A DNA stretch of 64,000 nucleotides from Lentimicrobiaceae bacterium (GCA_023227965.1 JALOCA010000002.1:65457-129456), one strand, 5' to 3'; counted from the stretch's first letter, positions 2,761 through 58,815 are shown. A program made the numbers and translations. The notes: generated from the sequence alone by a model not told the origin.

Positions 2761-2802
2761 TTTCTTCATGTTTTACAATAAACAACTTTAAATCTTATAA
2801 CT

Positions 2803-4297: not shown

Positions 4298-4366
4298 AGT
4301 GTATTATTAAAAAAAAGAGGTTAATAAAATATTTATCAACCCCTTTCAATTTAAAAAAATACCCGA

Positions 4367-6330: not shown

Positions 6331-6345
6331 AAAGAGACAACTGTT

Positions 6346-6930: not shown

Positions 6931-7107
6931 GGGTATAATTTTATAATAAAGGAAGCCTATTTTAAGTCTTCCTGTTTGTTTCACCTGCAAAGATAATGGA
7001 TTTACACAAATTACTGACAAAACCTATAGGAATAATATTTTAATAAAAAAATCAGGTTGCATAAAAAATTTGTACTTTTATTACGTGAAACTTTAAAATC
7101 ATATACT

Positions 7108-13146: not shown

Positions 13147-13152
13147 GGTTTT

Positions 13153-18499: not shown

Positions 18500-18510
18500 A
18501 ATATCATCAT

Positions 18511-26696: not shown

Positions 26697-27725
26697 ATGA
26701 TTTTAGTTACCGGAGCCACGGGATTGCTGGGTTCGTACCTGATAAGCGCATTACTGAAGCGTGGAGAAAAAGTACGGGCGCTCAGGCGTAGCAGTACCGA
26801 TATGCGTATGTTGCAAAAAGTTTTATCATACCAGAGTGAAAACCCTGAAGCATTATTTTCTGCAATTGAATGGTTGGAAGGTGATGTATGTGATGTGTAT
26901 TCCCTCGAAGAAGCCATGAAGGGAATATCGCAGGTATATCATTGTGCAGGTATAGTATCGTTTGAACCACGTTTCAGGGAAATGATGATGAATACCAACG
27001 TAAGAGGAACGGCGAACGTGGTAAATGCCGCATTGCATTGTGGTATCGACAAACTATGCCATGTAAGCTCCGTTGCTGCACTTAGCCGAACTGAGGCAGA
27101 CGAAGTCATTGACGAAAATTCCACATGGAAACCTTCCGGGCACAATTCTGTTTATGCCGTCAGCAAATACAATGGCGAACGCGAAGTATGGCGGGGAATG
27201 GAAGAAGGACTTAATGCTGTAATTGTTAATCCCTCGATAATAATCGGCTATGCGGGAAACAACAGCGGAAGTTCTCAGTTGTTTTCCACTATTGATGCCT
27301 GCTCCTGGTTTTACAGCAACGGGGTTAACGGTTTTATTGATGTACGCGATGTGGCAAGCTGTATGATTACATTAACCAACAGCGATATCAGCGGGAAACG
27401 TTTTGTGCTTTCGGCTGAAAATCTGAGCTACCGTCAACTGTTTATTTTTATTGCCGCACAACTGGAGAAAAAGCTCCCTTTTATCCGGGCAGGCAATGGT
27501 TTGCTCAGCCTTGTATGGAGAATAGAAAAATTACGTTCCTTGTTGTTGCGAAGCCAACCCATGATTACCATGGAAACAGTCAACACTCAAAAAAACAGGT
27601 ATTTTTATAACAACAATGCAATAAAGCAAGCAACGGGTATTAATTTTATACCAATAGAAGAAAGCATATCCTATTTTTGCAGTAAATATTCAGCCGACAA
27701 ACCATGGTTTCATTGCAGGGAATAA
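26697..27725 (+). CDS. NAD-dependent epimerase/dehydratase family (extended SDR) protein
   Basis: 342 aa with the Rossmann motif MILVTGATGLLGSYL and the YAVSK catalytic YxxxK. Confidence 0.85.
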   Translation: MILVTGATGLLGSYLISALLKRGEKVRALRRSSTDMRMLQKVLSYQSENPEALFSAIEWLEGDVCDVYSLEEAMKGISQVYHCAGIVSFEPRFREMMMNTNVRGTANVVNAALHCGIDKLCHVSSVAALSRTEADEVIDENSTWKPSGHNSVYAVSKYNGEREVWRGMEEGLNAVIVNPSIIIGYAGNNSGSSQLFSTIDACSWFYSNGVNGFIDVRDVASCMITLTNSDISGKRFVLSAENLSYRQLFIFIAAQLEKKLPFIRAGNGLLSLVWRIEKLRSLLLRSQPMITMETVNTQKNRYFYNNNAIKQATGINFIPIEESISYFCSKYSADKPWFHCRE

Positions 27726-28324
27726 AAAACATCATTTTCGATTTTGGCGGAGTCATCCTTAATCTTGATTTTAAAGCCGGTGAAACTGCTTTTGCCAGAC
27801 TTGGGGTAACAGATTTTGCAGAATTGTATTCGCAAATTAACCAGGTGCATATTTTTGATGACCTCGAAAAGGGCATCATCAGTCCAACAGAATTTAACAG
27901 GCGGATACATGTGCTAATCAACAAGGATATAAGCGATGAAGACCTTAATATTGCCTGGAATTCCATGCTGGGAGAAATGCCGCCCCAAAGAATCCGGACG
28001 CTGTTGCGATTGAAAAATATCTACCGCACATTTTTGCTTAGCAATTCCAATGCTATCCATTATGCCGTATTTGTAAAGGAGTTGCAGGAAAAATACGGCT
28101 TTGCTTCTTTCGACGAATTGTTTGAAAGGGTGTACTTTTCGTTTCGTGAAAGGATGAAAAAACCCGATCCGGAAATTTACAATTATGTATTACACACCAG
28201 CAACCTGATTCCGGAAGAAACTTTGTTTATAGAGGATACTGAAAAGAATCTGGTGCCTGCACGCCAGTTGGGCATACACACGTACTTGTTGCAGCCTGGT
28301 GAAGATATTTCCACATTGTTTTAA
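27704..28324 (+). CDS. HAD-superfamily hydrolase (subfamily IA)
   Basis: 206 aa with motif I IIFDFGGVI, motif II LLSNSN, and a C-terminal acidic motif in FIEDTEKN. It overlaps the preceding gene by 22 nt. Confidence 0.85.
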   Translation: MVSLQGIKNIIFDFGGVILNLDFKAGETAFARLGVTDFAELYSQINQVHIFDDLEKGIISPTEFNRRIHVLINKDISDEDLNIAWNSMLGEMPPQRIRTLLRLKNIYRTFLLSNSNAIHYAVFVKELQEKYGFASFDELFERVYFSFRERMKKPDPEIYNYVLHTSNLIPEETLFIEDTEKNLVPARQLGIHTYLLQPGEDISTLF

Positions 28325-31753: not shown

Positions 31754-31761
31754 TATTTTTG
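31754..31761 (+). promoter_or_regulatory. candidate -7 promoter element (TAttTTTG)
   Basis: tatttttg lies 21 nt upstream of ATG 31783. The track start at 31759 is the TTG inside the motif. Confidence 0.4.
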
Positions 31762-31782
31762 CAGGCAGGAGAAATTCCAGGA

Positions 31783-34149
31783 ATGAGAAAAACGAAGATA
31801 TTTGCTTTACTTTTTTTGTTGTTTTTATCTGAATTTCTTTGTGCGCAATCGTTAACCCAAACCATCCGGGGAAGGATAGTGGATAAAATTACCAAGCAAC
31901 CACTTCCGTTTGCCAACGTGGTTCTTCCGGTTGGTGAAAATTTTATAGGTGTTGCCACAGATATTAATGGTTATTACCGCCTTGAAAAAGTACCTGTCGG
32001 CAGGCAGGAAATAAAAGTGTCCTACATCGGTTACAGGTTAATAAACATCCAGGTAACGGTAATTTCTGCCCGCGAACTCATCCTCGATATCGAGCTGGAA
32101 GAAGCTATTGTAACTGCCGGTGAAGTTACCATTACCGGAAATTCAAATAAGGAGCGACCTATTAATGAAATATTAAAAGTAAGTTCCCGACTTTTTACCG
32201 TAGAAGAAACGCAGAAGTTTGCCGGCACACGCGGCGACCCTGCCCGCATGAGTATGAACTACGCCGGAGTTTCTGGTGCCAACGACCAACGAAACGATAT
32301 CATCATCCGGGGAAATTCTCCTACAGGCATTCTCTGGCGGATAGACGAAGTGGATGTTCCCAATCCCAACCATTTTGCTGCCTTGGGAGCTACTGGCGGA
32401 CCGGTAAGTATCCTCAACAACAATATGCTTGCTAATTCCGATTTTATTACCGGAGCCTTTCCGGCAGAGTATGGCAATGCTCTTTCCGGAGTTTTCGACC
32501 TTAAAATGCGCTCCGGTAACAACGAGAAACGGGAATATACCGGGCAAACCAGCTTCAATGGGCTGGAACTCGGAACGGAAGGTCCCTTCAGCCGCAAAAA
32601 CGGAAGCTCGTATATTGCCCATTATCGCTTTTCCTCGCTCCAGCTTGCCGATGAATTGCTTCATGCCAACCTGGGCACTTCCGGCATACCAAAATATCAG
32701 GATTTTACCTGTAAACTGAATTTCCCGGGCAAAAAAGGAAATTTATCAGTATTCGGAATCTGGGGACACAGCAGTATTGACATGCATGGAAGTCGTGATG
32801 AACATTCAAGCCTTTATTCCATCGCAGGACAGGATTTGTCCAATACTTCCGATATGCTGACAGGTGCTGCTACTTACACTCATACCCTAAATACTTCTTC
32901 TTTTTTAAAAATTATTATTTCCGGAAGTCATCAGAAAGGGGCTACGCATACCGACACACTCGATAACAACAATACGCTTCACAAGTATTATAATGAAAAG
33001 TTCATAAACAATATATTGAATGTAACCGCTTCTTTTACCAAAAAATTCTCTCCCCGCATTTCATCAAAAACCGGTTTCAGCATCGATTGGATGGCATTCG
33101 ACCTTTTTTCGGAATATTATCCTGTGAAAGAAAACCGCATTGACAAAGAAAGTGATTTTTCGCAGGGGATAACACTTCTGAAAGCTTATACACAATGGAA
33201 CCTGAAGATTAACGAACGTTTGTCGCTGACACCCGGCTTGCACTATCTTCGTTTCGGAATAAATAATTCCGAATCTTTAGAACCGCGGGTTTCTCTTTCG
33301 TGGGTAGTTTCCGGCGTGCAAACCCTGAATGCAGGTTACGGATTGCATAGCCGTCAATTACCTTTGTATGCCTATTATTATGATACAAAGCTGAGTAACA
33401 ATGAGGTTATTAAGACCAACAAAAACCTCGATTTTATTCGTACCCATCATTTTATTGTTGGCAGCGACAGGAGCCTCAACGAAAACCTCCGTTTGAAAAC
33501 AGAGGCTTATTATCAATATCTTTATAATGTTCCTGTAGAAAAACGTAGCTCCTCTTACAGCCTGGAAAACATTGGTGCAGAATGGCAGTTTGATTTACGC
33601 GACAGCCTTAAGAATACCGGTACCGGCAAAAATTACGGAATTGAGCTTACATTGGAAAGGTTTTTCAATAGAAGCTATTATTACCTGCTTTCCTTTTCGT
33701 TATTCGAATCAAAATATGAAGGCAGCGACGGAGTAGAACACAACACTGCTTACAACGGAAACTATGTTGCCAATGCTTTGCTGGGCGGAGAAATCAAGTT
33801 AAAAGAAGCCAAACATTATTCTACATTGTTGCTGGATACCAAAATTACTATAGCCGGCGGGAGACGTTACACCCCCATTGACATAGAAGCTTCCAGACAA
33901 AAGAACTCCACGGTTTATCTGGAGCAGGAAGCTTACAGCAGGCAGTTTCCGGTCTTTTTTAAAGCAGATTTCAGGCTGGGCATCCGCTTTGGCGGGAAAC
34001 GCATTTCGCAGGAAATACAAATTAATATCGAAAACATCACCGATTACAAAAACGGTATCTTCCGTTACTACAACTGCAAAACGGATAAAGTGGAAACCAT
34101 TCATCAGTATGGCATCTATCCGCTATTATTCAGTAGAATATATTTTTAA
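31783..34149 (+). CDS. TonB-dependent receptor with N-terminal carboxypeptidase-regulatory-like domain
   Basis: The signal peptide is MRKTKIFALLFLLFLSEFLCAQ. A CarbopepD_reg-like region (IRGRIVDKITKQPLPFANV...YYRL) and a plug region (RGDPARM...IIIRGNSPTG) follow. The large barrel ends in ...SRIYF. No susD-like gene is adjacent. Confidence 0.88.
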   Translation: MRKTKIFALLFLLFLSEFLCAQSLTQTIRGRIVDKITKQPLPFANVVLPVGENFIGVATDINGYYRLEKVPVGRQEIKVSYIGYRLINIQVTVISARELILDIELEEAIVTAGEVTITGNSNKERPINEILKVSSRLFTVEETQKFAGTRGDPARMSMNYAGVSGANDQRNDIIIRGNSPTGILWRIDEVDVPNPNHFAALGATGGPVSILNNNMLANSDFITGAFPAEYGNALSGVFDLKMRSGNNEKREYTGQTSFNGLELGTEGPFSRKNGSSYIAHYRFSSLQLADELLHANLGTSGIPKYQDFTCKLNFPGKKGNLSVFGIWGHSSIDMHGSRDEHSSLYSIAGQDLSNTSDMLTGAATYTHTLNTSSFLKIIISGSHQKGATHTDTLDNNNTLHKYYNEKFINNILNVTASFTKKFSPRISSKTGFSIDWMAFDLFSEYYPVKENRIDKESDFSQGITLLKAYTQWNLKINERLSLTPGLHYLRFGINNSESLEPRVSLSWVVSGVQTLNAGYGLHSRQLPLYAYYYDTKLSNNEVIKTNKNLDFIRTHHFIVGSDRSLNENLRLKTEAYYQYLYNVPVEKRSSSYSLENIGAEWQFDLRDSLKNTGTGKNYGIELTLERFFNRSYYYLLSFSLFESKYEGSDGVEHNTAYNGNYVANALLGGEIKLKEAKHYSTLLLDTKITIAGGRRYTPIDIEASRQKNSTVYLEQEAYSRQFPVFFKADFRLGIRFGGKRISQEIQINIENITDYKNGIFRYYNCKTDKVETIHQYGIYPLLFSRIYF

Positions 34150-35790: not shown

Positions 35791-35798
35791 TACTTTTG
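35791..35798 (+). promoter_or_regulatory. candidate -7 promoter element (TActTTTG) at the head of the 35.8-47.0 kb operon
   Basis: tacttttg ends 8 nt before ATG 35807. It lies in the intergenic region divergent from cysS. Confidence 0.4.
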
Positions 35799-35806
35799 GC
35801 AGTTAC

Positions 35807-37087
35807 ATGATTATCGCGTATGTTTGGTTGATTAAAAATGATAAAATTTATTCCGGGAATTTGCAGGGTAACCTTTTGAAAATAAAAGACAGAGAGCTGT
35901 TCAGGCAGCAATGTTTACAAAAAAACTGTTGTATCGTAATCCCCACCTATAACAATGGCGGCACCCTTGAAAAAGTGGTACGGGAAGTGCTGTTGTTTAC
36001 TTCAGGAATAATAGTGGTAAACGACGGTTCTACCGATTCTACTTCTGCAATTCTGGAAAAATTCAAAGAAATAGAGGTAATTACCCATGCAAAAAATCTG
36101 GGTAAAGGCAGCGCTTTGCGAAGCGGTTTTGCTTATGCCATTAGGTTGGGATACGAACATGCCATAACTATAGATTCCGATGGACAGCATTTTCCGGAAG
36201 ACCTTCCGGTTTTTCTGGAAAAATTAGATGAAGAGCCAGGGTCGTTGATTGTAGGTTCACGTAACATGCAACAAGAAGGTATTCCGTCGAAAAGTAGTTT
36301 TGGGCACAGGTTTTCCAATTTTTGGTTCTGGGTAGAAACAGGCATTCGCTTGCCTGATACCCAATCGGGTTACCGATTGTACCCCTTGCATCTTCTGAAA
36401 AATATGCGTTGGTTTACCCGTAAATTTGAATTTGAAATTGAAATTTTAGTCAGGGCGGCATGGAAAGGCATCCCGGTAACCTCAGTACCCGTAAAAGTAA
36501 TTTATGAACCCAAGGAAACCCGGATATCACATTTTCGTCCTTTCAGGGATTTTACAAGGGTGAGTATCCTTAACACTATCTTAGTTTTCATTTCATTGCT
36601 CTGCATTTACCCTTTTCATTTTTTTAAAAGTTTCAATAAGAAAAACATACAGAACTTTTTTCAAAACCAATTATTTAATGCCAACGAACCCAAAAGAGTC
36701 AAAGTTTTTTCGGTAATGCTGGGAGTTTTTATGGGCGTGGCTCCGGTGTGGGGATATCAAATGGCATTGGCACTGTTATTGGCTTATCTACTTAAACTGA
36801 ATAAAGTTATTACATTTATCGCTTCCAATATCAGTATCCCACCTTTTATTCCGGTAATTTTGTGGCTGAGTTATGTTGTGGGAGGATGGATTATGCCCGG
36901 AAAAGGAAGTTCGCTGCAGTTTAATGCAGATTTATCGTTTAATATATTGAAAAATAATTTAATACAATATTTAACGGGTAGCATTATTTTAGGAATTGCT
37001 TTGGCATTGGTTTTCGGAAGTATCACATATATCTCTATTTTGTTGCATCGTAAGTATAAAGAAGGAAATATGGATAATAATACTTAA
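35807..37087 (+). CDS. family 2 glycosyltransferase fused to a DUF2062-type membrane domain
   Basis: 426 aa. The GT-A core shows CIVIPTYNNGGTLEKVV, VVNDGSTDST and the DxD-like ITIDSDGQH. The C-terminal third has three or four TM helices, as I recall for DUF2062. Confidence 0.85.
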   Translation: MIIAYVWLIKNDKIYSGNLQGNLLKIKDRELFRQQCLQKNCCIVIPTYNNGGTLEKVVREVLLFTSGIIVVNDGSTDSTSAILEKFKEIEVITHAKNLGKGSALRSGFAYAIRLGYEHAITIDSDGQHFPEDLPVFLEKLDEEPGSLIVGSRNMQQEGIPSKSSFGHRFSNFWFWVETGIRLPDTQSGYRLYPLHLLKNMRWFTRKFEFEIEILVRAAWKGIPVTSVPVKVIYEPKETRISHFRPFRDFTRVSILNTILVFISLLCIYPFHFFKSFNKKNIQNFFQNQLFNANEPKRVKVFSVMLGVFMGVAPVWGYQMALALLLAYLLKLNKVITFIASNISIPPFIPVILWLSYVVGGWIMPGKGSSLQFNADLSFNILKNNLIQYLTGSIILGIALALVFGSITYISILLHRKYKEGNMDNNT

Positions 37088-37088
37088 A

Positions 37089-40000
37089 ATGGGGAAAATA
37101 TTTAACATATTATATACTATATTTAGTAAACATCGTTGGATATTTGGTATTTCAGTTGCCCTACTTTTTATTGCAGGGGCATATTTTGCCTTGAGGATAC
37201 GAGTGGTGGAGGATGTTACACAATTTATCCCCGAGGATAAAAAAATTGAAAAGCTGAATTATGTTTTTCAGCATCTTAAATCTACTGACAAGCTGATAGT
37301 TTCGGTGTATGATAATGATAGTGTGCATTCGTCGCCCGAAAAACTGATAGCTTATGCCGATAGCCTAACCACTTTTCTCGAAAAAAATTATTCTGGTTAT
37401 ATACGCGGGATACGTTACAAGGTTTCGGATTCGGAAATGTACTCAATTTATGATCTGTTTTATAGTAACTTTCCTGTATTTCTCGAGGAAAGCGATTACC
37501 TACGGTTAGATAGTCTAACAGAAAGCAAACAAATTCGTGAACATTTGCACAAAGACCTTCAAGCCCTGATGATGCCTGGAAGTTTTACCATGAAAAAATT
37601 CATTCTTGGCGACCCTGCAGGATTTATGCCACTTGTGCTTAATAAATTAAAGCGGCTAAAGGTTGACGATAACTATATAACTTACAACGGTTGTATTTTT
37701 TCGTCCGACATGAAAAACCTCATGCTTTTTATTGTGCCTTTTTATCCGGTAAACGAAACTTCAAACAATGCGAGGCTGCTTAAAGCAATTGACAGGCAAA
37801 CGAATAAACTTTCGGAAGGTTCTTCAGTCAGGGCAAGATATTTTGGAGCCGTTGCCGTTGCGGTAGGAAATGCCAACCAGCTTAAAAAAGATTCAATACT
37901 TACTTTAAGCCTGGCAGGTTTAGTTATAGTTGTGTTTATCAGTATCTTTTTCAGGAAAAGGTTTGCCTGGCTGGTCATATTTTTACCGGTAGTTTTCGGA
38001 GGAGTTTTTGCAATGGCAATACTTGGCTTTATCAAGCCTGATCTTTCAGCCCTGGCACTTGCAGCCGGTTCAGTAGTTTTTGGCATAGCCCTGAATTATT
38101 CCATGCACATTTACAGCCATTTTCAGCATACCCGCTCGGTACGAACGGTAATAAGCGATCTTTCAACTCCGCTAACTATCGGAAGTTTTACTACTATAGC
38201 CGCTTTTTTGTGTCTTCTTTTAACAAAATCGGAAGCATTACGCGATTTTGGAGTGTTTTCAGCACTTACACTTATTGGTACTATCTTGTTCTCACTGATA
38301 GTGATGCCCCATCTACTTCCATTGCAAAAAACACATCCCATTCCAAGTAAAACAGCCCGGTGGGTCGAAAAAATTGCCGGATACCAGTTACCAAAGCATA
38401 AATTATTTGTATTATTTCTTTTAATTGCTTCGATTGTATTATTAATTTTTTCGCAAAAAACCGGCTTTGAAAGCGATATGGCAAAAATGAACTACATGAG
38501 CCATAAACTTTTAGATGCCGAAAAAAAGATTAATGCCATAAACAATTCCACATCGGGCAGCTTATATCTGGTTTCAACTGGTAAAACGTTGAATGAAGCT
38601 CTTTTAAATAATGAACTTGTTTACAACGGGTTGAATAATTTAAAACAAAAAGGCGCCATCAGCCGATTTACTCACGTAGGTTCATTTCTTACAGACGATT
38701 CGATTCAAAAACAGCGAATCTCGCGCTGGAATGCTTACTGGACTCCCGAAAAAAAGAGAAAATTTACTCAGAACCTGAAAATTTTAGCACATGAAACAGG
38801 CTTTTCGTCAACGGCTTTCAGCGAAAGTTTGCAGTTAATAAATAAAACTTACACAGTATTAGGTTCAAACGATATTAACCGGATTAATGGTACTTTACTT
38901 AATGAATGGGTAACCAAAACGCCAACAATGAGTATGGTGCTTACACAGGTGGTTGTTAATCCTAACCACAAAAAAGAGGTAAAAGAGGCTTTTATAAACC
39001 ATGAAGACGTAACTGTACTCGATAAATCCGTTTATTCTAACCTGTTCATCACTCTCATCAGTGACGACTTCAACATGATATTGTGGGTTTCATCTCTTCT
39101 CGTTTTTGCGACCCTACTTTTTTCATACGGTAGAATCGAACTGGCTTTTATTACATTTATTCCCATGCTGTTGAGTTGGGTTTGGATAACCGGGTTTATG
39201 GGAATATTTGGCTTGGGTTTCAATATAATAAATATTATTATCTGCACATTTATTTTTGGTTTGGGCGACGATTACAGTATTTTTGTGATGGATGGACTTC
39301 AACAGGAATACAAATACGGAAAAAAACTTCTTTCGTCGTATAAAACTGCCATTTTTTTGTCAGCGTTCACCACCATCACCGGAGTAGGTGTGCTGATTTT
39401 TGCAAAACATCCGGCTTTACAATCAATTGCCCTTGTTTCTATCATCGGAATGATTTCGGTAGTTTTTATTTCATACACTATTGAACCCTTGATGTTCAAA
39501 TTTTTAGTTAATGCAGGTAAGCATCGCAGAAGTGAGCCTTCGGCATGGTTCCTTATTTTTTATGCACCCATTTTTTATGGATTTTATGTAGCAAGTTGTT
39601 TTGCCACCATTATTTTTTGGTTTCTTATTCTGCAATGGCTTCCTATTGGAGAAAAAAGGAAGAAACATATATTCCATTTCATGATGATGTACCTTTCGAG
39701 GGCTACAATTTTTGTGATGTTCCTTGTTCGCAAAAGGATCATTAATTTCGACAAAGAAATTTTTGCCAAACCCTCGGTAATAATTTTTAATCATCAAAGT
39801 ATCATTGACATACCGCTTACAATGATGTTTTCGCCCAAGGTAATAATTCTTACTACCGACTGGGTGTGGAAACATCCGCTGGTTGGAAAAATTGCAAGAG
39901 CAGCCGATTTTTATCCTGTTTCGCAGGGAATTGATAACCTGATAGACCATTTGCGCAAAAAAGTACACGAAGGATATTCTTTACTCATGTTTCCAGAAGG

Positions 40001-40940
40001 GCATCGTTCCCCCGATTTACATATCAAGCGTTTTCATAAAGGGGCTTTCTATATTGCCGAGCAACTTGGTTTGGATATTGTACCTGCAGTTATGCATGGT
40101 ACCGGTGAGTATGTTTCAAAAGGAGAATTTTTGGGGAAAGTCAGTACCATAACTGTTAAATTTCTGGATAGAATTACCCCTGACGACCCGCACTTCGGAA
40201 CTTCACTTGCCGAAAAAGCCAAAAATATAGGATTGTATTTCAAAGATGAACACGAAAAGCTACTCGATACGTTTTACAGGCTGCCTGTTTATCAGAAGAA
40301 AAGAGTCATAAAAAACTACATTTACAAAGGTCCTGTTCTTGAGTGGTATGTTCGTGTAAAACTAAAACTCGAAAACAATTATAGTTTGTACCATCAGTTG
40401 CTGCCCCGCGAAGGAGTTATAATTGATGCCGGCTGTGGATATGGATATATTTCCATTATGCTTGCTTTACTTTCGCCTAAGAGAACAATAACGGGGGTAG
40501 ATTTTGATGAAGAAAAAATTGAGGTTGCACGGCATTGCCTTACCGGGAAAAACAAAGTAACTTTTAAATGTGCCGATGTTTCAGATTATTCTTTTCCGAG
40601 AGCCAATGGAATAATACTTAGTGATGTGGTACATTATCTTAACGAAGGTGAACAGGAAAAACTATTTAATAATTGCATAGCCAGCCTTCAGCCCGGAGGG
40701 GTGCTTTTGATTCGCGAAGCAGACAGTAAAATGCAGAAACACCATAAGGTTACCCTTTTTACTGAATTTTTTTCCAATCTTTCGGGATTTAACCATAGTA
40801 AACATCACCAGTTGTATTTTACTTCGGCTGCAAAAATTCAGCAATTGGCGAAAAAAAATGCAATGGATTTTAAAATATATGAAAAATCAAAATTTACATC
40901 TAACTTATTAATTGTACTTACAAAACCAGAAAATAGCTAA
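37089..40940 (+). CDS. triple-fusion protein: MMPL/RND-type transporter + PlsC-type (lysophospholipid) acyltransferase + class I SAM methyltransferase
   Basis: I take the start at MGKIFNILY (ATG 37089, 1 nt after the upstream stop). Two bundles of six TM helices, each preceded by a large loop, carry GIALNYSMHIY and GLGDDYSIFVMDG. The acyltransferase motifs are FNHQSIIDIP (HX4D) and MFPEGHRS. The methyltransferase motif I is VIIDAGCGYGYISIMLA, with LLIRE downstream. Confidence 0.85.
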   Translation: MGKIFNILYTIFSKHRWIFGISVALLFIAGAYFALRIRVVEDVTQFIPEDKKIEKLNYVFQHLKSTDKLIVSVYDNDSVHSSPEKLIAYADSLTTFLEKNYSGYIRGIRYKVSDSEMYSIYDLFYSNFPVFLEESDYLRLDSLTESKQIREHLHKDLQALMMPGSFTMKKFILGDPAGFMPLVLNKLKRLKVDDNYITYNGCIFSSDMKNLMLFIVPFYPVNETSNNARLLKAIDRQTNKLSEGSSVRARYFGAVAVAVGNANQLKKDSILTLSLAGLVIVVFISIFFRKRFAWLVIFLPVVFGGVFAMAILGFIKPDLSALALAAGSVVFGIALNYSMHIYSHFQHTRSVRTVISDLSTPLTIGSFTTIAAFLCLLLTKSEALRDFGVFSALTLIGTILFSLIVMPHLLPLQKTHPIPSKTARWVEKIAGYQLPKHKLFVLFLLIASIVLLIFSQKTGFESDMAKMNYMSHKLLDAEKKINAINNSTSGSLYLVSTGKTLNEALLNNELVYNGLNNLKQKGAISRFTHVGSFLTDDSIQKQRISRWNAYWTPEKKRKFTQNLKILAHETGFSSTAFSESLQLINKTYTVLGSNDINRINGTLLNEWVTKTPTMSMVLTQVVVNPNHKKEVKEAFINHEDVTVLDKSVYSNLFITLISDDFNMILWVSSLLVFATLLFSYGRIELAFITFIPMLLSWVWITGFMGIFGLGFNIINIIICTFIFGLGDDYSIFVMDGLQQEYKYGKKLLSSYKTAIFLSAFTTITGVGVLIFAKHPALQSIALVSIIGMISVVFISYTIEPLMFKFLVNAGKHRRSEPSAWFLIFYAPIFYGFYVASCFATIIFWFLILQWLPIGEKRKKHIFHFMMMYLSRATIFVMFLVRKRIINFDKEIFAKPSVIIFNHQSIIDIPLTMMFSPKVIILTTDWVWKHPLVGKIARAADFYPVSQGIDNLIDHLRKKVHEGYSLLMFPEGHRSPDLHIKRFHKGAFYIAEQLGLDIVPAVMHGTGEYVSKGEFLGKVSTITVKFLDRITPDDPHFGTSLAEKAKNIGLYFKDEHEKLLDTFYRLPVYQKKRVIKNYIYKGPVLEWYVRVKLKLENNYSLYHQLLPREGVIIDAGCGYGYISIMLALLSPKRTITGVDFDEEKIEVARHCLTGKNKVTFKCADVSDYSFPRANGIILSDVVHYLNEGEQEKLFNNCIASLQPGGVLLIREADSKMQKHHKVTLFTEFFSNLSGFNHSKHHQLYFTSAAKIQQLAKKNAMDFKIYEKSKFTSNLLIVLTKPENS

Positions 40941-42438
40941 TGCAAAGATACGACGTAGTGATAGTAGGCAGCGGGCTTGGAGGCTTACTTTGCGCATATA
41001 TCCTTGGTAAAGAAGGAATGAATGTTTGTGTTTTAGAAAAAAATAAACAATTTGGAGGCTGCTTGCAAACATTTACCCGAGACGGTTGTGTGTTCGATAC
41101 TGGTGTACATTATATCGGAAGTCTCGAACCAGGGCAAATACTTCACCGGTATTTTTCATACTTCGGATTGATGGATAAACTCAATATCAGAAAACTTGAT
41201 GAAGATGGTTTCGACCATGTGTGTTTTGGCAACGATGGTAGCGAATATCCTTTAGCCATGGGCTATCATCATTTTATTGAAACCCTCCACCGGTATTTCC
41301 CTGACGAAAAGAAAGCATTAAGAACTTATGTAAGCAGACTAAAACATCTTGCCCGTTCATTTCCCCTGAATAACCTGAGAGAAGGGAAAAGCCTACTTTC
41401 GGAAGCTGATTTTTTTAAAGATAACACTCGTAATTTTTTACAATCTATTACACAAAATACCCGATTGCAGAATATTCTTGCTGGCACGGGCTTCCTTTAC
41501 GGTGGTGTAGGCGAAAAATCACCATTGTATGTGCATGCACTGATAAACAATTCTTTTATCGAAAGTTCGTGGAGAACCGTGGATGGAAGTTCGCAAATGG
41601 CGCGACTGCTTATCGGAGGAATTACCAGCATGGGAGGAACCGTGCGAAATTCTGCCGAAGTAGTAAAATTAGTTAGCAATAACGAAGGCATAACCCAAGC
41701 AGTATTATCAGATGGAGAACAAATAGCCGCTTCGAATTTTATCTCGAACATTCATCCTTCGGTAACCCTTAAAATGCTGAATACTAAATTTATCAGGAAG
41801 GCATATAGTGAACGCATTGATTCACTCGAAAATACTGCTTCGGCTTTTATTATTTATGTCTGCCTAAAAAAGGACACGTTCCCCAAACTTGGTTACAACG
41901 TATATTATTACAACCACGAAAACGTGTGGGATGCCGTTGCCTACAACCCCACGTTATGGCCCGAAAGTTATGTACTGCTACTCCCGAAAATTCAATAGAC
42001 GATAAATATGCATCTTCAGCCATAATAATGTCTTATATGCAATATTCTGAAGTAAAACAATGGGAAAGCACCACGGTAGGCAACAGGGGCGAAAGTTACC
42101 TTGAGTTCAAAAAAAATAAAGCAGAATTACTGCTCGACCTTGTTGAAAAAAAATTTCCTGGTTTCAAAAGATGCATCAGCAGTTATACAACATCTTCACC
42201 TCTGACTATCCGCGATTACACCGGTTCGAAGGAAGGCTCTATGTTTGGAATTTTACGAAACTGCAACGACCCATTTCGAAACATGATATTTGCCAAAACA
42301 AAAGTTCCTAACCTATATTTCACTGGGCAGAATATTGTTTTGCACGGTATTCTGGGGGTTACAATAGGTGCTGTAGCTACCTGTGGCGAAATGGTAGGGA
42401 TTAACCATCTGATAAGCAAAATAAATAATGAGGGATGA
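40940..42438 (+). pseudogene. NAD(P)/FAD-dependent oxidoreductase (phytoene-desaturase/CrtI-like), split into two overlapping frames
   Basis: ORF 40940..41998 starts with the dinucleotide fold YDVVIVGSGLGGLLCAYILGKEGMNVCVLEKNKQFGG. ORF 41926..42438 lies in the -1 frame relative to it. That second ORF carries the expected C-terminal part (TSSPLTIRDYTGSKEGSMFGI...YFTGQN...HGILGV). Together they make about 500 aa. This is either a true frameshift or a sequence error near 41960-41985. Confidence 0.7.
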
Positions 42439-44129
42439 TGAAACGCAAATTGAAAAAAATATTTTTCTATACACTGATAGTTTTTACTTCAATGATATTA
42501 ATAATTTTTATTTGTGAAAAATGGGTTTGGCGGCTCTCTCCTCCCGAAGTGAAGGATTTTTCTGCCCTGCAAAGGGAAAGAACAACTGTTTCCCCTGATT
42601 TTTATGTACTTGGAAATAGTTGGCTCAGAAAGAATTCCGTAGGATTATGGGAAATGTATGTCGAAGGCGATCCCTTTACTATGGGTGTAATAAACGGGAA
42701 ACTAACGAAGGAACTTATCAATTATCAGGAAAATGTTTTTGTTAACCAGATACAAACTCTTATTCCTTCAAAATTTTATCAGAAATTTCTCAATGTATTT
42801 GTCAGTTTTTTTAACCGTAAACTCGATTCCCATATCCCCAAAGAATATCTGACTGAAATTTACGGGATTTCCTTCTCGGCTTCACATGCGTACGACCGTT
42901 ATGGAAGTCCCTACCATCGCATATTAAATTACCATGCCGCACACGACATGGGACATGCCCTGCAGAATCTACACATGGTTGGCTGCACTTCCTTTTCGGT
43001 ATGGAACGATAAATCGGAAAACGGCAACCTGTTAATTGGAAGAAATTTCGATTTCTACTTCGGCGACGATTTTTCCAAAAATAAAATCATAGGTTTCTAC
43101 AACCCTTCAAAGGGTTACAAATTTATGACGGTAGCATGGGGCGGTATGGCAGGAGCCGTATCAGGAATGAACGATCAGGGACTTACCGTTACCATGAATG
43201 CTGCCAATTCGGATGTCCCCTTAGGAGCAAAAACGCCTATAACATTGGTTACCCGTGAAATATTACAATATGCTGCCAATATCGAACAAGCTTATGCCAT
43301 CGCCTGTAAACGGGAAACCTTTGTTTCGGAATCGTTGATGATAGGCTCGGCTGCCGATAACAAAACGGTCATTATTGAGAAAGATCCGAAGCAAACAGGT
43401 TTGTTCGAAACAAACACCAATTATATTGTTTGCACTAACCATTTCCAGGACAAAATTACCGGTAGCAGTCCAAAAAATCGCAAATTTATGCGGCAAAGTT
43501 CTACAGTATACCGTTACAGACGTGTGGAAGAACTATTGCAACGAAAAAGCCGCCTTTCTGTTACCGATTTTGCAACCCTGCTTCGTAACAGGAACGGCAT
43601 GCACGACAAACCAATAGGAATGGGAAACGAAAAAGCAATTAATCAACTGATTGCTCACCATTCAATCATTTTTGAACCGGCAAAACTTAGGGTTTGGGTT
43701 TCCTCCAATCCCTGGCAGTTAGGAAAATACATCTGCTACGACCTGAGTAAAATTTTCACTGAACGCAGGGGAATGAAACAAAACAGGGAAGTTTGTGAAA
43801 AATCTTTTAATATCCCTGAAGACCCATTTTTGCAATCGGAAGACTATAAAAATTTTGTATTTTACAAGAAAACATTGACTGATATTACAAATTATATATA
43901 TTTTGGTACCGGAAAAGAGCCGATAACTTTGGACTTGCAAAAGTTTGAAAAATCGAATCCGTACTATTTTCAAACGTATGCAACCCTTGCCGATTATTAT
44001 TTCAAAAAGAAGATGTATACCTCTGCCTACAGGTACTGTACCCTTGCATTGGTTTGTGAAATTCCTGCCATTAGCGAACGAACGAAAATCAAAAATACTG
44101 CCCTTGCTTGTTTAAAGAAATTCAGGTAA
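42435..44129 (+). CDS. membrane-anchored C45 family (acyl-CoA:6-APA acyltransferase-like, Ntn) acyltransferase/hydrolase
   Basis: 564 aa with an N-terminal TM (FFYTLIVFTSMILIIFIC). The candidate autoprocessing and nucleophile site is HMVGCTSFSVW (Gly-Cys), followed by LIGRNFDF and GMNDQGLTVTMNA. The C-terminal region looks helical. Its ATG overlaps the previous stop (ATGA). Confidence 0.75.
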   Translation: MMKRKLKKIFFYTLIVFTSMILIIFICEKWVWRLSPPEVKDFSALQRERTTVSPDFYVLGNSWLRKNSVGLWEMYVEGDPFTMGVINGKLTKELINYQENVFVNQIQTLIPSKFYQKFLNVFVSFFNRKLDSHIPKEYLTEIYGISFSASHAYDRYGSPYHRILNYHAAHDMGHALQNLHMVGCTSFSVWNDKSENGNLLIGRNFDFYFGDDFSKNKIIGFYNPSKGYKFMTVAWGGMAGAVSGMNDQGLTVTMNAANSDVPLGAKTPITLVTREILQYAANIEQAYAIACKRETFVSESLMIGSAADNKTVIIEKDPKQTGLFETNTNYIVCTNHFQDKITGSSPKNRKFMRQSSTVYRYRRVEELLQRKSRLSVTDFATLLRNRNGMHDKPIGMGNEKAINQLIAHHSIIFEPAKLRVWVSSNPWQLGKYICYDLSKIFTERRGMKQNREVCEKSFNIPEDPFLQSEDYKNFVFYKKTLTDITNYIYFGTGKEPITLDLQKFEKSNPYYFQTYATLADYYFKKKMYTSAYRYCTLALVCEIPAISERTKIKNTALACLKKFR

Positions 44130-44164
44130 TACGCATCAGAAAACCGGAAAAGAAAATTAAGACT

Positions 44165-45436
44165 ATGAAAATAAAACTGATTTATCCCAAGTGGACAAAA
44201 CTGGAAGGACAAACCCATTTTAACCTGCCTCCGCACGGTCCCGTGGTTTTTGCTGCTACGCTTCCTGATTATGTAGAGATAGAATTTACCGATGAAAATG
44301 TTGAGCCCCTTACAATCACCGACGACTGCGACCTGGTGGCAATCTCCATGATGCTTACCACCCAGATAAAACGGGGTTGGGAAATTGCCGAAACCTATCA
44401 TAGCTTAGGCAAAAAAGTGATTTTCGGAGGTATTTCTACCATGCTGCACGCAGAAGAAACCCTGCAACATGCCGATTCTGTTTTTCTTGGCGAAAGCGAA
44501 GGTAGAATGGAACAGGTACTCGACGATTTCAGAAAAAATCGCCTGCAAAAAGTGTATAACTTCATGAACAACCGCCCTGACATAGCCCTTGTAGGACCTG
44601 CCCGCCGCGACATTCTTAAAAGCGAACTTTATTACCATAAAGGAGTGCAAATGGTAGATTTGTTCCACGCTTCGCGGGGATGTCGTTTCAGTTGCTACCC
44701 GTGTGCCGTTACCTATCTCGGCGGAAGAGAATTTCGCCCGAGACCTCTGGACAAAGTGATAGAGGAGCTTGAAACCATACAAAACAACCGGCTTTTTATA
44801 GTAGATAACTCACTGGCACAGGATACTCAATGGGAAAAAGACCTTTTCAGAGAGATGATCCCCCTGAAAAAGAAATGGTGCAGCCATACTATAGAAGATA
44901 AACCCGAAGTGCTTAATCTTGCTGCACAGGCAGGCGCCTGGTATGTGTACCAGGCAGTGTTCGACACCTCCGACTATATCAAAGACCGTATTAAAATGTA
45001 CCACGACTATGGCATAGGCGTAGAGGGTACTATTTTATTAGGACTCGACAACCAGACGGAAGACGACATTCTACGCCTTATTGACTTCCTGCTCGAAATT
45101 GACCTCGATCTTGCCGAATTTACCGTGATGACTCCTTTTCCCCATACCAAAGCCTGGGATGATATGATTCGTGAAAAACGGATTTTTAATTTCGACTGGA
45201 ACGACTATAATGCCGGCAAAGTGGTATTTCAGCCCAAACACATGAGCCCTGAACGGCTGCAGGAACTTTTTTACCTTGCCTGGGATACCTTTTACAAAGA
45301 TGAATCACAAGCCCAGAAAATGTTCAAACTCTTCCGGAAAGTGATAGAAAAAGAAATCGAAGACGGAACCTATCGCTCACGCCGCCAGGATTTGGCAGAT
45401 ATCAGTTTCGGGAAAAAAGTTACCAGGGGAAGTTAA
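44165..45436 (+). CDS. B12-binding-domain radical SAM protein
   Basis: I take the start at MKIKLIYPKW (ATG 44165). The N-terminal Rossmann-like domain (DLVAISMMLTTQ...KVIFGGIS) is typical of class B radical SAM enzymes. The cluster motif is ASRGCRFSCYPC (CxxxCxxC). Confidence 0.85.
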   Translation: MKIKLIYPKWTKLEGQTHFNLPPHGPVVFAATLPDYVEIEFTDENVEPLTITDDCDLVAISMMLTTQIKRGWEIAETYHSLGKKVIFGGISTMLHAEETLQHADSVFLGESEGRMEQVLDDFRKNRLQKVYNFMNNRPDIALVGPARRDILKSELYYHKGVQMVDLFHASRGCRFSCYPCAVTYLGGREFRPRPLDKVIEELETIQNNRLFIVDNSLAQDTQWEKDLFREMIPLKKKWCSHTIEDKPEVLNLAAQAGAWYVYQAVFDTSDYIKDRIKMYHDYGIGVEGTILLGLDNQTEDDILRLIDFLLEIDLDLAEFTVMTPFPHTKAWDDMIREKRIFNFDWNDYNAGKVVFQPKHMSPERLQELFYLAWDTFYKDESQAQKMFKLFRKVIEKEIEDGTYRSRRQDLADISFGKKVTRGS

Positions 45437-45470
45437 TCATTAACGTTTAATCAGCATTTTATCATTTTGC

Positions 45471-45848
45471 ATGAAAGAAAAAAATAATTTAACCGATAGT
45501 ATTTATCGTTTCAAAGGCGAATGGGACATGGACTCGCAATGCGGTTTAAAAATTCACAGGGCAAAAAACGGCATGACCATAGTTATAGCCACCGACTTGT
45601 ACAACGAAAATCCGGGTACTTCCGTTACCCGTTGGAATGCCCCCTTAGCTACAGCCATTGCCGCCGAATACCAGATCCCCCACAATAAACTGTATTTTAT
45701 TGAGCATACTCCCGACCGTGGCTCGAAGCTTACTTTTTACACTGAAACTTTTTACCATGTTTCTTTCCTTTCCGACGGCGAAAAACTTGTAGATCCCAAC
45801 TGGGAAAAGCTTACCCGTGAAGAAGTGGAAACAATGTTGTCTTCCTGA
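45471..45848 (+). CDS. hypothetical protein (125 aa, no motif recognised)
   Basis: Clean ORF in operon context, 34 nt after the radical SAM gene and 8 nt before the O-methyltransferase. It looks soluble and has a single Cys. Confidence 0.55.
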   Translation: MKEKNNLTDSIYRFKGEWDMDSQCGLKIHRAKNGMTIVIATDLYNENPGTSVTRWNAPLATAIAAEYQIPHNKLYFIEHTPDRGSKLTFYTETFYHVSFLSDGEKLVDPNWEKLTREEVETMLSS

Positions 45849-45856
45849 AAAAACAC

Positions 45857-46966
45857 ATGAAAACTTTTACCCAGTTTCTGCCCCCTGCATGGACAATGCA
45901 GGTATTACAATGGTTTCGCAATGGTTTATACAAGTTGCGGATGCACATGGTTCCCGGAGGAATTGCCCTATTTGAAATCGTTCACGATTTTTGGTATGCC
46001 AGGGCGTTGGGCGTTGCCGCCGAATTGGACATTGCAGGCTTACTGAAAGAAAAACCCCTGCACATTGACCAACTGGCTGCGCTTACGCAAACCCATTCGC
46101 CTTCGCTGTACCGCCTTATGCGCACGCTGGCAAGCCGGGGCGTTTTCCGCGAAACTGAGAAAAATGTTTTTCACCTTACCTTTCTTGCCAGGGCATTGCT
46201 CGACAAGGAAGATGGCATGAAGTACCTGATACAAAGCCATACCAGTGTTACACAATTGCAAAATTTCGGCGAACTGCTCCATTGCGTACGTACAGGCGAA
46301 AATGCTTATGTAAAAAGATTCAATACCCATGCTTTCGATTTCATGACTGCCAATCCTGCCGAGGCGGCGGTTTTTAATAAAGGCATGAGCAATGCTTCGC
46401 GGTTGTTTGCCAAAGCCCTACTTTCGGCTTACAGTTTCAGAAATTTTAAAAAGATAGTGGACATCGGAGGCGGAAACGGAGTATTGCTTTCTTCCATACT
46501 TTCACGATACCCCTCGGCAACAGGCATACTTTTTGACCTGCCACACGTTATCGAAAACGTTGACACTTCGCTACACGATGGGGATACAATATCTTTGCGT
46601 TTGCAATTGTCGGTGGGAGATTTTTTTGAAAATGTACCCTCCGGTGCCGATTTGTACATTTTGAAAAATGTGCTTCACGACTGGGACGACAGCCATTGCA
46701 TTTTACTATTGAGTAAAATCTGTTCGGTTATCGAAAATGGGAGTCGCCTGCTGGTTATCGAAAGCATTATTCCGGAAGGAAATACTCCTTCGTTTGGGAA
46801 AATGATGGATTTGCTGATGCTTACAGGTACGCAGGGCGGCAGGGAACGTACGCTTGCCGAATACAAAAAGTTATTTGCCGAAGCTCAACTGCACTGCCGA
46901 CGTGTGGTGCATACCGTAGCTCCTTTTTCGGTAATGGAAGCAATAAAAAAGGAAATGCCAGGGTAA
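45857..46966 (+). CDS. family 2 (small-molecule) O-methyltransferase with N-terminal dimerisation/winged-helix domain
   Basis: 369 aa. The N-terminal region (ARALGVAAELDIAGLL...LMRTLASRGVF) is followed by SAM motif I (IVDIGGGNGVLL) and by ILKNVLHDWDD. Confidence 0.85.
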   Translation: MKTFTQFLPPAWTMQVLQWFRNGLYKLRMHMVPGGIALFEIVHDFWYARALGVAAELDIAGLLKEKPLHIDQLAALTQTHSPSLYRLMRTLASRGVFRETEKNVFHLTFLARALLDKEDGMKYLIQSHTSVTQLQNFGELLHCVRTGENAYVKRFNTHAFDFMTANPAEAAVFNKGMSNASRLFAKALLSAYSFRNFKKIVDIGGGNGVLLSSILSRYPSATGILFDLPHVIENVDTSLHDGDTISLRLQLSVGDFFENVPSGADLYILKNVLHDWDDSHCILLLSKICSVIENGSRLLVIESIIPEGNTPSFGKMMDLLMLTGTQGGRERTLAEYKKLFAEAQLHCRRVVHTVAPFSVMEAIKKEMPG

Positions 46967-57157: not shown

Positions 57158-58768
57158 ATGAAAAGAGAAGAATCGTCCTTCGGGAGAAGGAAACCTGATG
57201 AAAAGCATTCTGATGAAAAATCAGTATCTGGCAAAAGACCCCGGATAACAACTTACGGAGTGAAAAAATCTGAACCCTCTTACAAGGAAAAATCAAGAGA
57301 TAAACACGAACGTCCCTACAAAGAAAGAAAATCCGGGAAGGAAGACGGTGCAAAACCTTACGAACGTAAACCTTATGGCGAAAGAAGTCCTCGTCGCGAA
57401 AGTAATGACAAACCTTACGAACGTAAACCCTACGGAGAAAGACGTCCACGTCGTGAAAGTGAAGACAAACCCTACGAGCGTAAACCCTATGGCGAAAGAA
57501 GTCCTCGTCGTGAAAGTGAAGACAAACCTTACGAACGTAAACCCTATAGCGAAAGACGTCCTCGTCGTGAAAGTGAAGGCAAACCCTACGAACGTAAACC
57601 CTATGGCGAAAGACGTCCACGTCGTGAAAGTGAAGGCAAACCTTACGAACGTAAACCCTATGGCGAAAGACGTCCACGTCGTGAAAGTGAAGACAAACCT
57701 TACGAACGTAAACCCTACGGTGAAAGACGTCCTCGTCGCGAAAGTGAAGACAAACCTTACGAACGTAAACCTTATGGCGAAAGAAGTCCTCGTCGCGAAA
57801 GTGAAGACAAACCCTACGAGCGTAAACCCTATGGCGAAAGACGTCCTCGTCGCGAAAGTGATGACAAATCCTACGAACGCAAAAAACCGGAAGAAGAAAG
57901 CGACAGCAAGCCCTTTATAATCACAAGAAGTTGGGATGCAGGCGACGAAAAACCCCGCCGAAAAACAAAAGAATTCAAAGAACGCCCTAAAACCAGGTTC
58001 GATACAAAAAACAAATCTGATGAAGACGCTGATATGCACAGCAAAAAAGATGAAGACGGCTTAATCCGACTCAACAAATACCTTTCCAATGCAGGAGTGT
58101 GTTCACGCCGCGAAGCCGACGAATTGATTCAGGCAGGAGCCGTTTCCGTAAATGGAGTCATCATCACGGAACTGGGGCATAAAATTTCGCCCGACGACAA
58201 AGTGCAATATGGAGGTGAAACTCTTCATCGCGAAAAGTACCAATATGTCTTGCTTAATAAGCCCAAAGGATACATTACTACCCTCGACGACCCCGATGAA
58301 AGAAAAACCGTGATGCTTCTGGTTCAGGATGCCTGTAAAGAGCGCATTTATCCTGTTGGCAGACTCGACAGGAACACTACTGGGCTATTGCTGTTCACCA
58401 ATGATGGCGAACTGACGAAAAAGCTGACCCATCCACGTTACAATATCCGGAAAATTTATCATGCTACCCTTGATAAATCCCTTACACATAACGATTTTTT
58501 ACAACTTACCGAAGGTGTCGAACTCGAAGACGGTTTCATAAAAATAGACGAACTGGCTTATGTAGGTGAAGGGAAAAAAGAATTGGGGTTGGAAATTCAT
58601 TCCGGGCAAAACAGAGTTGTCCGTCGTTTATTCGAACATTTGGGATACGATGTTGTTAAGTTAGATCGGGTTTCTTTTGCCGGACTTACCAAAAAAGACC
58701 TGCCCCGTGGAAAATGTCGCCATCTTACCCAACAGGAAATAAATTTTCTGAAAATGATGAAAGCGTAA
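57158..58768 (+). CDS. rluB: RluB/RsuA-family pseudouridine synthase with a ~290-aa repetitive charged N-terminal extension
   Basis: The C-terminal 245 aa hold an S4 domain (IRLNKYLSNAGVCSRREADELI) and the catalytic motif YPVGRLDRNTTGLLLFTNDGEL. The N-terminal part is K/R/E/P/Y-rich low-complexity sequence that includes nine tandem 19-aa repeats. Confidence 0.88.
   Translation: MKREESSFGRRKPDEKHSDEKSVSGKRPRITTYGVKKSEPSYKEKSRDKHERPYKERKSGKEDGAKPYERKPYGERSPRRESNDKPYERKPYGERRPRRESEDKPYERKPYGERSPRRESEDKPYERKPYSERRPRRESEGKPYERKPYGERRPRRESEGKPYERKPYGERRPRRESEDKPYERKPYGERRPRRESEDKPYERKPYGERSPRRESEDKPYERKPYGERRPRRESDDKSYERKKPEEESDSKPFIITRSWDAGDEKPRRKTKEFKERPKTRFDTKNKSDEDADMHSKKDEDGLIRLNKYLSNAGVCSRREADELIQAGAVSVNGVIITELGHKISPDDKVQYGGETLHREKYQYVLLNKPKGYITTLDDPDERKTVMLLVQDACKERIYPVGRLDRNTTGLLLFTNDGELTKKLTHPRYNIRKIYHATLDKSLTHNDFLQLTEGVELEDGFIKIDELAYVGEGKKELGLEIHSGQNRVVRRLFEHLGYDVVKLDRVSFAGLTKKDLPRGKCRHLTQQEINFLKMMKA
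57353..57865 (+). repeat. 9 x 57-bp in-frame tandem repeat encoding KPYERKPYGER(R/S)PRRES(E/N/D)(D/G)
   Basis: Aligned by hand, with unit starts at 57353, 57410, 57467, 57524, 57581, 57638, 57695, 57752 and 57809. A degenerate tenth unit follows (KSYERKKPEEE). Confidence 0.95.
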
Positions 58769-58815
58769 TCAAATTTTTACAATTTTCGCACCCCAAAATT
58801 AACAAACCGAACATT

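Follow-up and report, generated by a model that had tools for sequence, protein, structure and literature searches.

A 64,000-nucleotide (nt) stretch of DNA from a Lentimicrobiaceae bacterium (in the following, the window means this whole stretch) carries seven co-directional genes, designated A to G from 5' to 3', and these genes form one conserved operon. Rather probably, the operon is the membrane-attachment, export, and head-group-tailoring half of a split flexirubin/aryl-polyene-type pigment-lipid pathway, in a variant that is found in uncultured Bacteroidales from mostly anoxic habitats and of which we found no earlier description in the literature. Aryl-polyene and flexirubin clusters are considered to be among the biosynthetic gene cluster families with the widest distribution in bacteria, and their lipids shield cells from oxidative stress; the producers that have been studied are, to our knowledge, only aerobic or facultative. 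The operon consists of the following genes:

35807..37087, + strand: gene A, a GT2 glycosyltransferase with a DUF2062 membrane domain (Pfam, BLASTP)
37089..40940, + strand: gene B, a 1283-amino-acid (aa) fusion of an MMPL/RND exporter, a PlsC-type lysophospholipid acyltransferase, and a class I S-adenosylmethionine (SAM) methyltransferase (Pfam/NCBIfam)
40940..42438, + strand: gene C, a CrtI/CrtD-like flavin adenine dinucleotide (FAD) oxidoreductase, frameshifted in the window (Pfam/NCBIfam)
42435..44129, + strand: gene D, a C45 N-terminal nucleophile (Ntn)-type autoproteolytic acyltransferase/hydrolase (NCBIfam)
44165..45436, + strand: gene E, a radical-SAM enzyme with an N-terminal B12-binding-type domain (Pfam, motif, fold)
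45471..45848, + strand: gene F, a 125-aa protein that belongs to no family (Pfam/NCBIfam empty)
45857..46966, + strand: gene G, a methyltransferase with PF00891 and the dimerisation domain PF08100 (Pfam)

Domains were called with Pfam and NCBIfam profiles, and every domain named in an initial reading of this DNA (the original prediction) was found, although the frameshift in gene C had been overlooked there. The tight packing of seven co-directional open reading frames (ORFs) that it described was reproduced with all coordinates and junctions, which are, in order, a 1-nt gap, a 1-nt overlap, an ATGA overlap, and gaps of 35, 34, and 8 nt. Gene starts on the public contig that matches the window agree with the ORF starts of the window, with an identical call for gene A; gene D is publicly recorded with a start one codon downstream of the first methionine, and an exact look-up of the first-methionine product returned nothing. 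Bare A-G operons of the same order and tight spacing exist in three lineages at 52-88% amino-acid identity, namely in the window with its cysS and deoD flanks, in a group of relatives that have arginine decarboxylase and M20 peptidase genes as flanks and include the 3.75-Mb contig ctg45504c of ERZ21878447 and the 2.25-Mb contig Ga0268359_11804 (L002 group), and in an 11.8-kb contig that is the closest relative (L176). We count three lineages and not many because the loci of the L002 group share their flanks at 72-100% identity, and two of the three lineages carry different flanking genes. The recurrence of the bare form in other genomes bears out the idea of a free-standing unit as opposed to a one-off rearrangement scrap. 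The possibility that such gene sets are always embedded in a canonical cluster was also checked, and while most relatives are linked to biosynthetic genes, the three lineages are not.

The ape system of Escherichia coli CFT073 and Xenorhabdus doucetiae (apeA-apeR), whose products are the aryl-polyene (APE) lipids or APELs, provides the first line of evidence for the assignment. Genetics and structure work in Xenorhabdus indicated that ApeD acylates a lysophospholipid, ApeJ adds N-acetylgalactosamine (GalNAc) and the aryl-polyene, ApeM is the lipid exporter, and ApeB is responsible for methylation of the aryl head (bioRxiv 10.1101/2020.12.19.423268; PMC8253772). We compared the operon products with the CFT073 cluster proteins by BLASTP and Pfam. 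Gene A, which has GT2 (1.5e-23) and DUF2062 (1.9e-17) matches in Pfam, aligns with the GT2 half of CFT073 ApeJ (residues 8-232) at 34% identity (E=5.6e-39, BLASTP), whereas the LpxL-like acyltransferase half at the C-terminus of ApeJ has no counterpart in gene A by BLASTP or Pfam, and DUF2062 is found in its place. In gene B (Pfam MMPL, 5.7e-13; HAE3 family, 3.3e-32), residues 894-997 resemble ApeD (27%, 5e-11) and residues 262-530 resemble ApeM (23%, 1e-7), and the HX4D motif is present in the translation as 'HQSIID'. Exporter, acyltransferase, and a second methyltransferase are fused into a single protein in the operon, which is a difference from the ape cluster. In a Rikenellaceae metagenome-assembled genome (L085, positions 1871-6981), PlsC is a 444-aa gene of its own and the exporter is fused to the methyltransferase alone, which indicates that the three-domain fusion of gene B is not universal. 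The similarity of gene G to ApeB is weak (25% over 114 aa, 1.4e-5), but both combine PF00891 (5.2e-50 in G) with a dimerisation domain, and the closest solved relatives of G are the phenol/aromatic methyltransferases 6c5b, AlpH, CalO6, and MmcR; by its domain set, G is the predicted ApeB counterpart, of the phenol/aromatic small-molecule type. The operon and the ape cluster have ApeJ-, ApeD-, ApeM-, and ApeB-like parts in common, and the homologies of A to ApeJ, of B to ApeD and ApeM, and of G to ApeB substantiate the proposal that accessory functions of ape/flexirubin clusters are encoded here. ApeC/O/R, ApeE/F, ApeI/P, ApeQ, ApeH, ApeK, ApeL/N, ApeG, and ApeA are absent from the operon, and its genes C, D, E, and F are unmatched in the ape cluster.

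Flexirubin clusters, known from Chitinophaga pinensis and Flavobacterium johnsoniae, account for two of these unmatched genes. Gene D has thousands of homologues in Bacteroidota, with a relative encoded in at least 551 species, and from a survey with one genome per species we took 80 genome loci for gene order; A-B-C-D is colinear in most of them. The block has the same order and orientation in Chitinophaga niabensis, at 42-50% amino-acid identity. In Chitinophaga, Puia, and others, it is preceded by a ketosynthase-type gene (PF13723), a polysaccharide deacetylase, LolA, and an ApeI-like dehydratase, and followed by a phosphopantetheinyl transferase (PPTase) and an AMP-ligase. This neighborhood is the layout of the flexirubin cluster of C. 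pinensis, in which deacetylase, acyltransferase, LolA, glycosyltransferase, and exporter have been assigned to export 'by yet unknown mechanisms', and among the flx genes, FlxA is a tyrosine ammonia-lyase (TAL) and FlxY a 4-coumarate ligase (PMC3992019). Aerobic clusters of this kind carry the PPTase and FlxY after D, whereas the operon carries E-F-G at this position; TAL, FlxY, ketosynthase (KS), LolA, polysaccharide deacetylase, and KASIII are not near the operon, but its relatives have an FlxY-equivalog ligase after E-F or an aromatic amino-acid lyase before it. Gene D scores 227.7 bits with the C45_proenzyme model NF040521 (cut-off 85) and bears a hydrophobic N-terminal anchor. In its Gly-Cys-Thr site, C183 and T184 are invariant and G182 is nearly so among 20 homologues; a PDB sequence search with D returned no match. 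For gene C, the nearest solved relative is the gamma-carotene desaturase 4rep.

The second line of evidence comes from genes E and F. The CxxxCxxC motif of E (C173/C177/C180) is invariant, and its profile scores lie slightly below the Pfam cut-offs (B12-binding, 31.3 versus 32.1; Radical_SAM, 28.5 versus 29.5), while none of the curated NCBIfam models reaches its cut-off with E. In fold comparisons, the model of E is most similar to AprD4 (TM-score 0.75), followed by MgmA and TsrM. With these solved B12-domain radical-SAM enzymes, and with CysS, it shares the CxxxCxxC motif and an N-terminal Rossmann-like B12-type domain, at just 14-17% sequence identity, and it differs from them in always being paired with the 125-aa protein F. 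AprD4 is no methylase, MgmA and TsrM are methylases, and the modeled fold of E resembles both kinds, so that E may carry out either a methylation, in the manner of the cobalamin-dependent (class B) radical-SAM methyltransferases, or an AprD4-like dehydration. E is also the most conserved protein of the operon, with 84-88% identity between lineages whose other operon proteins are 52-70% identical, which argues for strong purifying selection. More than 6,300 homologues are found at E<=1e-20, with generic names only, and nearly all of them stem from uncultured Bacteroidales. For gene F, AlphaFold gave a confident model (mean predicted local distance difference test, pLDDT, 90.6) that has no PDB fold match above a TM-score of 0.35; the wider F family counts 1637 representatives and is without a Pfam model. 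Three distant members of this family (P0180, P0210, and P0242) are fused to DUF6166.

For the gene order around E, we analyzed the best 80 of at least 449 metagenome stretches (L089-L168), in which E is 73-85% identical (73-88% across loci overall); these E-centered loci reach 10 kb around E, and their ORFs were clustered and the clusters annotated. F lies directly 3' of E in 63 of 74 loci. E is preceded by D in 25 cases, by C in 18, by a sulfotransferase in 9, and by TAL in 3; in 43 of 66 loci, it stands immediately after D or C. The genes linked to E-F include an aromatic amino-acid lyase, a KS that is 56% identical to ApeR, a ketoreductase (KR) that is 47% identical to ApeQ, acyl carrier proteins (ACPs) that are 40-46% identical to ApeE/ApeF, and a ligase whose score with the FlxY equivalog model of NCBIfam (670 bits) exceeds the cut-off of 520. 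By their gene order, E and F are a fixed pair and a standing module of flexirubin/APE-type clusters in this Bacteroidales clade. The recurrence of E-F beside TAL, FlxY, KS, KR, and ACP genes speaks against a foreign add-on, and the original prediction, which had regarded the radical-SAM and O-methyltransferase genes as an extra tail, has to be revised in this respect, as E-F recur within such clusters and G has the ApeB domain set. The frequent position of E between TAL and FlxY suggests that E may act early, on an aromatic starter. In our genome set, the aerobic genera Chitinophaga, Mucilaginibacter, and Terrimonas have A-D and lack E-F, and the loci with E-F belong to Bacteroidales and Rikenellaceae or were recovered from samples that include Lac Pavin and a lake hypolimnion. 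This spread over anoxic habitats, as deduced from sample names, fits an oxygen-sensitive enzyme. In the literature, radical-SAM, C45, or DUF2062 proteins were not found to be tied to aryl-polyene/flexirubin clusters beyond genome-mining lists.

The E-centered loci show the following recurring architectures (omp, outer-membrane protein; rSAM, radical-SAM protein; TE, thioesterase; ECH, enoyl-CoA hydratase family):

A B C D E F G
rSAM< A B C D E F omp G ABC2 u140 BtrH-like ACP sulfotransferase ligase
KS EamA LolA ApeI A B C E F BD-FAE ligase
LpxL< ACP< KS< KR< TAL< u140 BtrH-like ACP sulfotransferase E F
KS TAL E F
A B C D E F TE ECH ECH KASIII rSAM
B C E F BD-FAE ligase, amid housekeeping genes

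One relative (L092) has the order ApeI-like, then A B C C' D E F G omp, and three loci (L104, L109, L111) contain TAL, KR, KS, and ACP together with E-F and have no A-D within 10 kb. In another locus (L096), several genes fall apart into two to three ORFs each (gene order A A B B B ... G G), which looks like the product of a low-accuracy assembly rather than biology. The clearest case of a divided cluster is the complete Bacteroidales chromosome CP070687.1 (2.94 Mb), which encodes A, C, D, and G with a u157 gene at 2.902-2.924 Mb (L066), and a sulfotransferase, E, F, FlxY, KASIII, two ECH proteins, and a thioesterase at 2.753-2.774 Mb (L173, 2752957-2774225), so that two cluster pieces lie about 130 kb apart. 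The sulfotransferase-E-F piece of this chromosome adjoins an adenosine phosphosulfate (APS) kinase, a PAPS_reduct-family protein (PF01507), and a GTP_EFTU-domain protein; these neighbors resemble sulfate-activation genes, which suggests a sulfated product in that lineage.

Co-occurrences within the E-centered loci were counted for the 31 loci with D and the 49 others. G accompanies D in 17/31 versus 4/49. A separate LpxL-like gene is found in 0/31 loci with the C45 gene D and in 7/49 of the others, which supports D as a stand-in for the LpxL-like half of ApeJ, but weakly, as the loci share relationships among themselves. KS and D never share a locus (0/31 versus 16/49), but we rejected this exclusion as evidence for a synthase-free pathway, as A-D fill the 10 kb upstream and as both L092 and Chitinophaga join D with core genes. 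D and the BD-FAE hydrolase are likewise mutually exclusive (0/31 versus 18/49).

The genes for chain building were sought in the window and 10 kb at either end, together about 84 kb. Pfam was applied to the seven operon genes and all other window ORFs of at least 100 aa, precomputed Pfam matches were used for the 10-kb flanks, and about 40 reference proteins from related clusters served as tblastn queries (E<=1e-3) against window and flanks. The queries comprised KS, chain-length-factor-like KS, KR, ACPs, TAL, ApeI-like dehydratase (DH), LolA, polysaccharide deacetylase, thioesterase, FlxY-type ligase, BtrH-like protein, sulfotransferase, KASIII, and ECH. No window ORF has the KS/chain-length-factor domains PF00109, PF02801, or PF13723, and neither the ApeR-like KS (56%) nor the Chitinophaga PF13723 gene detected anything in the window and its flanks by tblastn. 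The same applies to the ApeQ-like KR and the ApeI-like dehydratases, and TAL (FlxA) and the FlxY ligase were also not found there. In the window, no ORF with a PP-binding domain was present and tblastn with three cluster ACPs was empty, the LolA/LolB-like families PF03548 and DUF3261 were absent and two LolA-like queries gave no hit, and no KASIII-type (ACP_syn_III) protein, looked for with regard to the dialkylresorcinol genes darA/darB, was found. The one related gene in this region that lies outside the operon encodes the outer-membrane protein at 31759-34149 described below. The absence of the synthase core from the 64 kb, as originally noted, therefore holds and extends to about 84 kb, and the locus is no complete ape/flexirubin cluster, because KS, ACP, KR, DH, and LolA are all lacking. 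The sole window protein of the short-chain dehydrogenase/reductase type (26697-27725) is of the Epimerase/NAD_binding_4 type; together with the HAD hydrolase gene behind it, the gene of this 'male sterility'-type reductase spans 26697-28324, and a fatty acyl reductase-like lipid enzyme could be encoded here. The segment 21323-23280, 12.5 kb upstream of the operon, encodes an MFS_3 transporter and then an Sfp/HetI-type PPTase (22603-23280), and this Sfp-type enzyme is a hint that the genome has a pathway dependent on carrier proteins at some other place.

On this basis, the following pathway can be envisaged. An aryl-acyl or aryl-polyenoyl thioester would be supplied by genes elsewhere (TAL, FlxY-type ligase, ACP, and KS/KR/DH or KASIII/ECH), while B, through its PlsC domain, and A, as the glycosyltransferase, would assemble a glyco-phospholipid anchor. 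The C45 acyltransferase D would then load the aryl-acyl group onto this anchor, standing in for the LpxL-like half of ApeJ. D is the best candidate for the acyl transfer, as it is of Ntn type with an invariant cysteine nucleophile and as the LpxL-like half is missing in A. The CrtI-like flavoenzyme C may tune the unsaturation, G may methylate the aromatic head as ApeB does, and E with F may carry out a radical modification, which could be a C-methylation or an AprD4-like dehydration. Finally, the MMPL domain of B would export the lipid toward the outer membrane, perhaps together with an outer-membrane protein encoded at 31759-34149 (see below). The original prediction had envisaged a stand-alone tailoring and export system with a substrate that is either made elsewhere or an ordinary membrane lipid. 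The context of TAL, FlxY, and KS genes, the phenol-type methyltransferase G, and the split on CP070687.1 favor the first of these options and disfavor the second.

Several observations weigh against the assignment to a split pigment-lipid pathway. Chain-building genes are absent in the about 84 kb here and within 10 kb in the L002 group, three lineages retain these seven genes alone, and another group has B-C-E-F with a BD-FAE hydrolase and FlxY between the housekeeping genes dxr and obg, so that a core-independent function is possible. In addition, the top structural match of E is AprD4 and hence a non-methylating dehydratase, the reactions of C, D, E, and F are only putative, and gene C is frameshifted in the window copy.

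The most serious competitor is a self-contained envelope-lipid system, in which A-G, or a kernel of B-C-E-F, would take ordinary acyl chains or an imported aromatic acid as substrate, with no dedicated synthase involved. We regard it as unlikely, although it would explain why the bare operon occurs in three lineages, in two of them with different flanks and without a core within reach, and why some B-C-E-F-BD-FAE-FlxY loci sit between dxr and obg. The CrtI-like and radical-SAM enzymes would in this case modify a lipid-bound chain that the MMPL domain exports, which we likewise hold to be unlikely. The lack of any E-centered locus combining D with KS seems to point in the same direction, but it is largely an effect of the reach, and L092 and Chitinophaga do combine D with a core. 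Moreover, G is an aromatic-type methyltransferase like ApeB, E-F adjoins TAL, FlxY, KS, or ACP genes in many loci, and one chromosome directly shows a split cluster. A more far-reaching version, to which we give little credence, starts from the kernel that is common to all reduced forms, the B fusion with C, E, and F. This kernel might be a synthase-independent route to a new envelope lipid of anaerobic Bacteroidales, and aryl-polyene clusters would merely have recruited it. Its reactions would be, with about the same low likelihood, a desaturation and a radical methylation, cyclization, or deoxygenation of an acyl chain or aryl acid on a phospholipid, in a logic that would, just as doubtfully, be loosely ladderane-like (as proposed for ladderanes).

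That the operon is a decaying and no longer functional fragment left after loss of the synthase is very unlikely, although core genes are absent nearby and gene C is damaged in the window. The segment 40940-42438 comprises 1499 nt, which is not a multiple of three, and gene C is therefore split into the two ORFs 40940-41998 (352 aa) and 41926-42438 (170 aa). Relative to the contig k141_184336 of the ENA assembly ERZ27247363, one T is missing at 41979/80, where CTGCTTACT has become CTGCTACT, and this is the single gap in 21,692 nt that are otherwise identical. The unbroken frame with 'YVLLTPENS' agrees with the gene C homologues, and the public contig L001 encodes the full 499-aa product. An exact look-up of the truncated 352-aa product in public records was empty, so the frameshift cannot be traced to any of them, and the deletion may be either a real mutation or an assembly error. 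Decay is contradicted not only by the intact gene C on the otherwise identical public contig, but also by the seven intact genes with overlapping or short junctions in L002, L087-L091, and L176, and by the conservation of E, which far exceeds that of the other proteins. The remaining idea, that E-F-G belong to a separate pathway such as cofactor or quinone modification and lie next to A-D by chance, can appeal to L104, L109, and L111, which have E-F without A-D within reach, and to the aerobic flexirubin clusters with A-D and no E-F, but it is most improbable given the adjacency of E to D or C, the joining of E-F with TAL, KS, KR, and ACP genes of the same pathway family where A-D is absent, and the co-occurrence of G with D.

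The loci described here show that a large clade of uncultured Bacteroidales, known from digesters, guts, and anoxic lake water, has a version of such clusters built around the radical-SAM enzyme E and its partner F, and that the attachment/export genes are separable from the synthase genes. Rule-based genome-mining tools that require a KS/ACP core can be expected to miss or mis-split such loci. For enzymology, a strongly conserved radical-SAM enzyme in a lipid-pigment pathway would be of interest, and the finding also bears on the use of such pigments by anaerobes.

Two further features near the operon deserve mention:

35791..35798, + strand: promoter motif TACTTTTG (Bacteroidota -7-like), 5' of gene A (motif scan)
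31759..34149, + strand: 796-aa outer-membrane protein with a CarboxypepD_reg match and a weak Plug match, probably a displaced cluster member (Pfam)

The TAnnTTTG motif that had been described to head the run is present at 35791 as TACTTTTG and stops just 8 nt ahead of the ATG of gene A. As the motif is frequent in the window (98 matches versus 81 +/- 8 expected), it is weak evidence by itself. Scans of the window for sigma-70 promoters and terminators gave background levels only, and riboswitches, cobalamin or other, were not found in it by Rfam. The divergent cysS on the left and the convergent deoD on the right are placed as described, the latter as a deoD-like PNP_UDP_1 gene.

The outer-membrane protein is 38% identical over 777 aa to the product of a gene that lies between F and G in L084/L039, and 58% identical to that of the gene right after G in L092; its family is found directly 3' of F in 18 E-centered loci and occupies the position between F and G in many larger clusters. 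Judged by these relatives, the gene at 31759-34149 is probably a displaced cluster member, and we can only infer this membership since cysS separates the gene from the operon. A role as B12 receptor was considered and is at most conceivable, as there is no riboswitch and as the sole curated match is an S-layer family far below cut-off.

Elsewhere in the window, a DUF6873 protein and a radical-SAM protein with a Radical_SAM_C domain are encoded as a pair at 23299-25003 (- strand). The potassium pump kdpABC is encoded in full at 12463-20196 (- strand), along with its sensor kinase KdpD and the response regulator. GldB (5314-6330), a large protein with the type IX secretion signal Por_Secre_tail (58714-62067), and an Fe/Mn superoxide dismutase (2803-3381) together point to a genome of the Bacteroidota that provides for type IX secretion and for a degree of oxygen tolerance.

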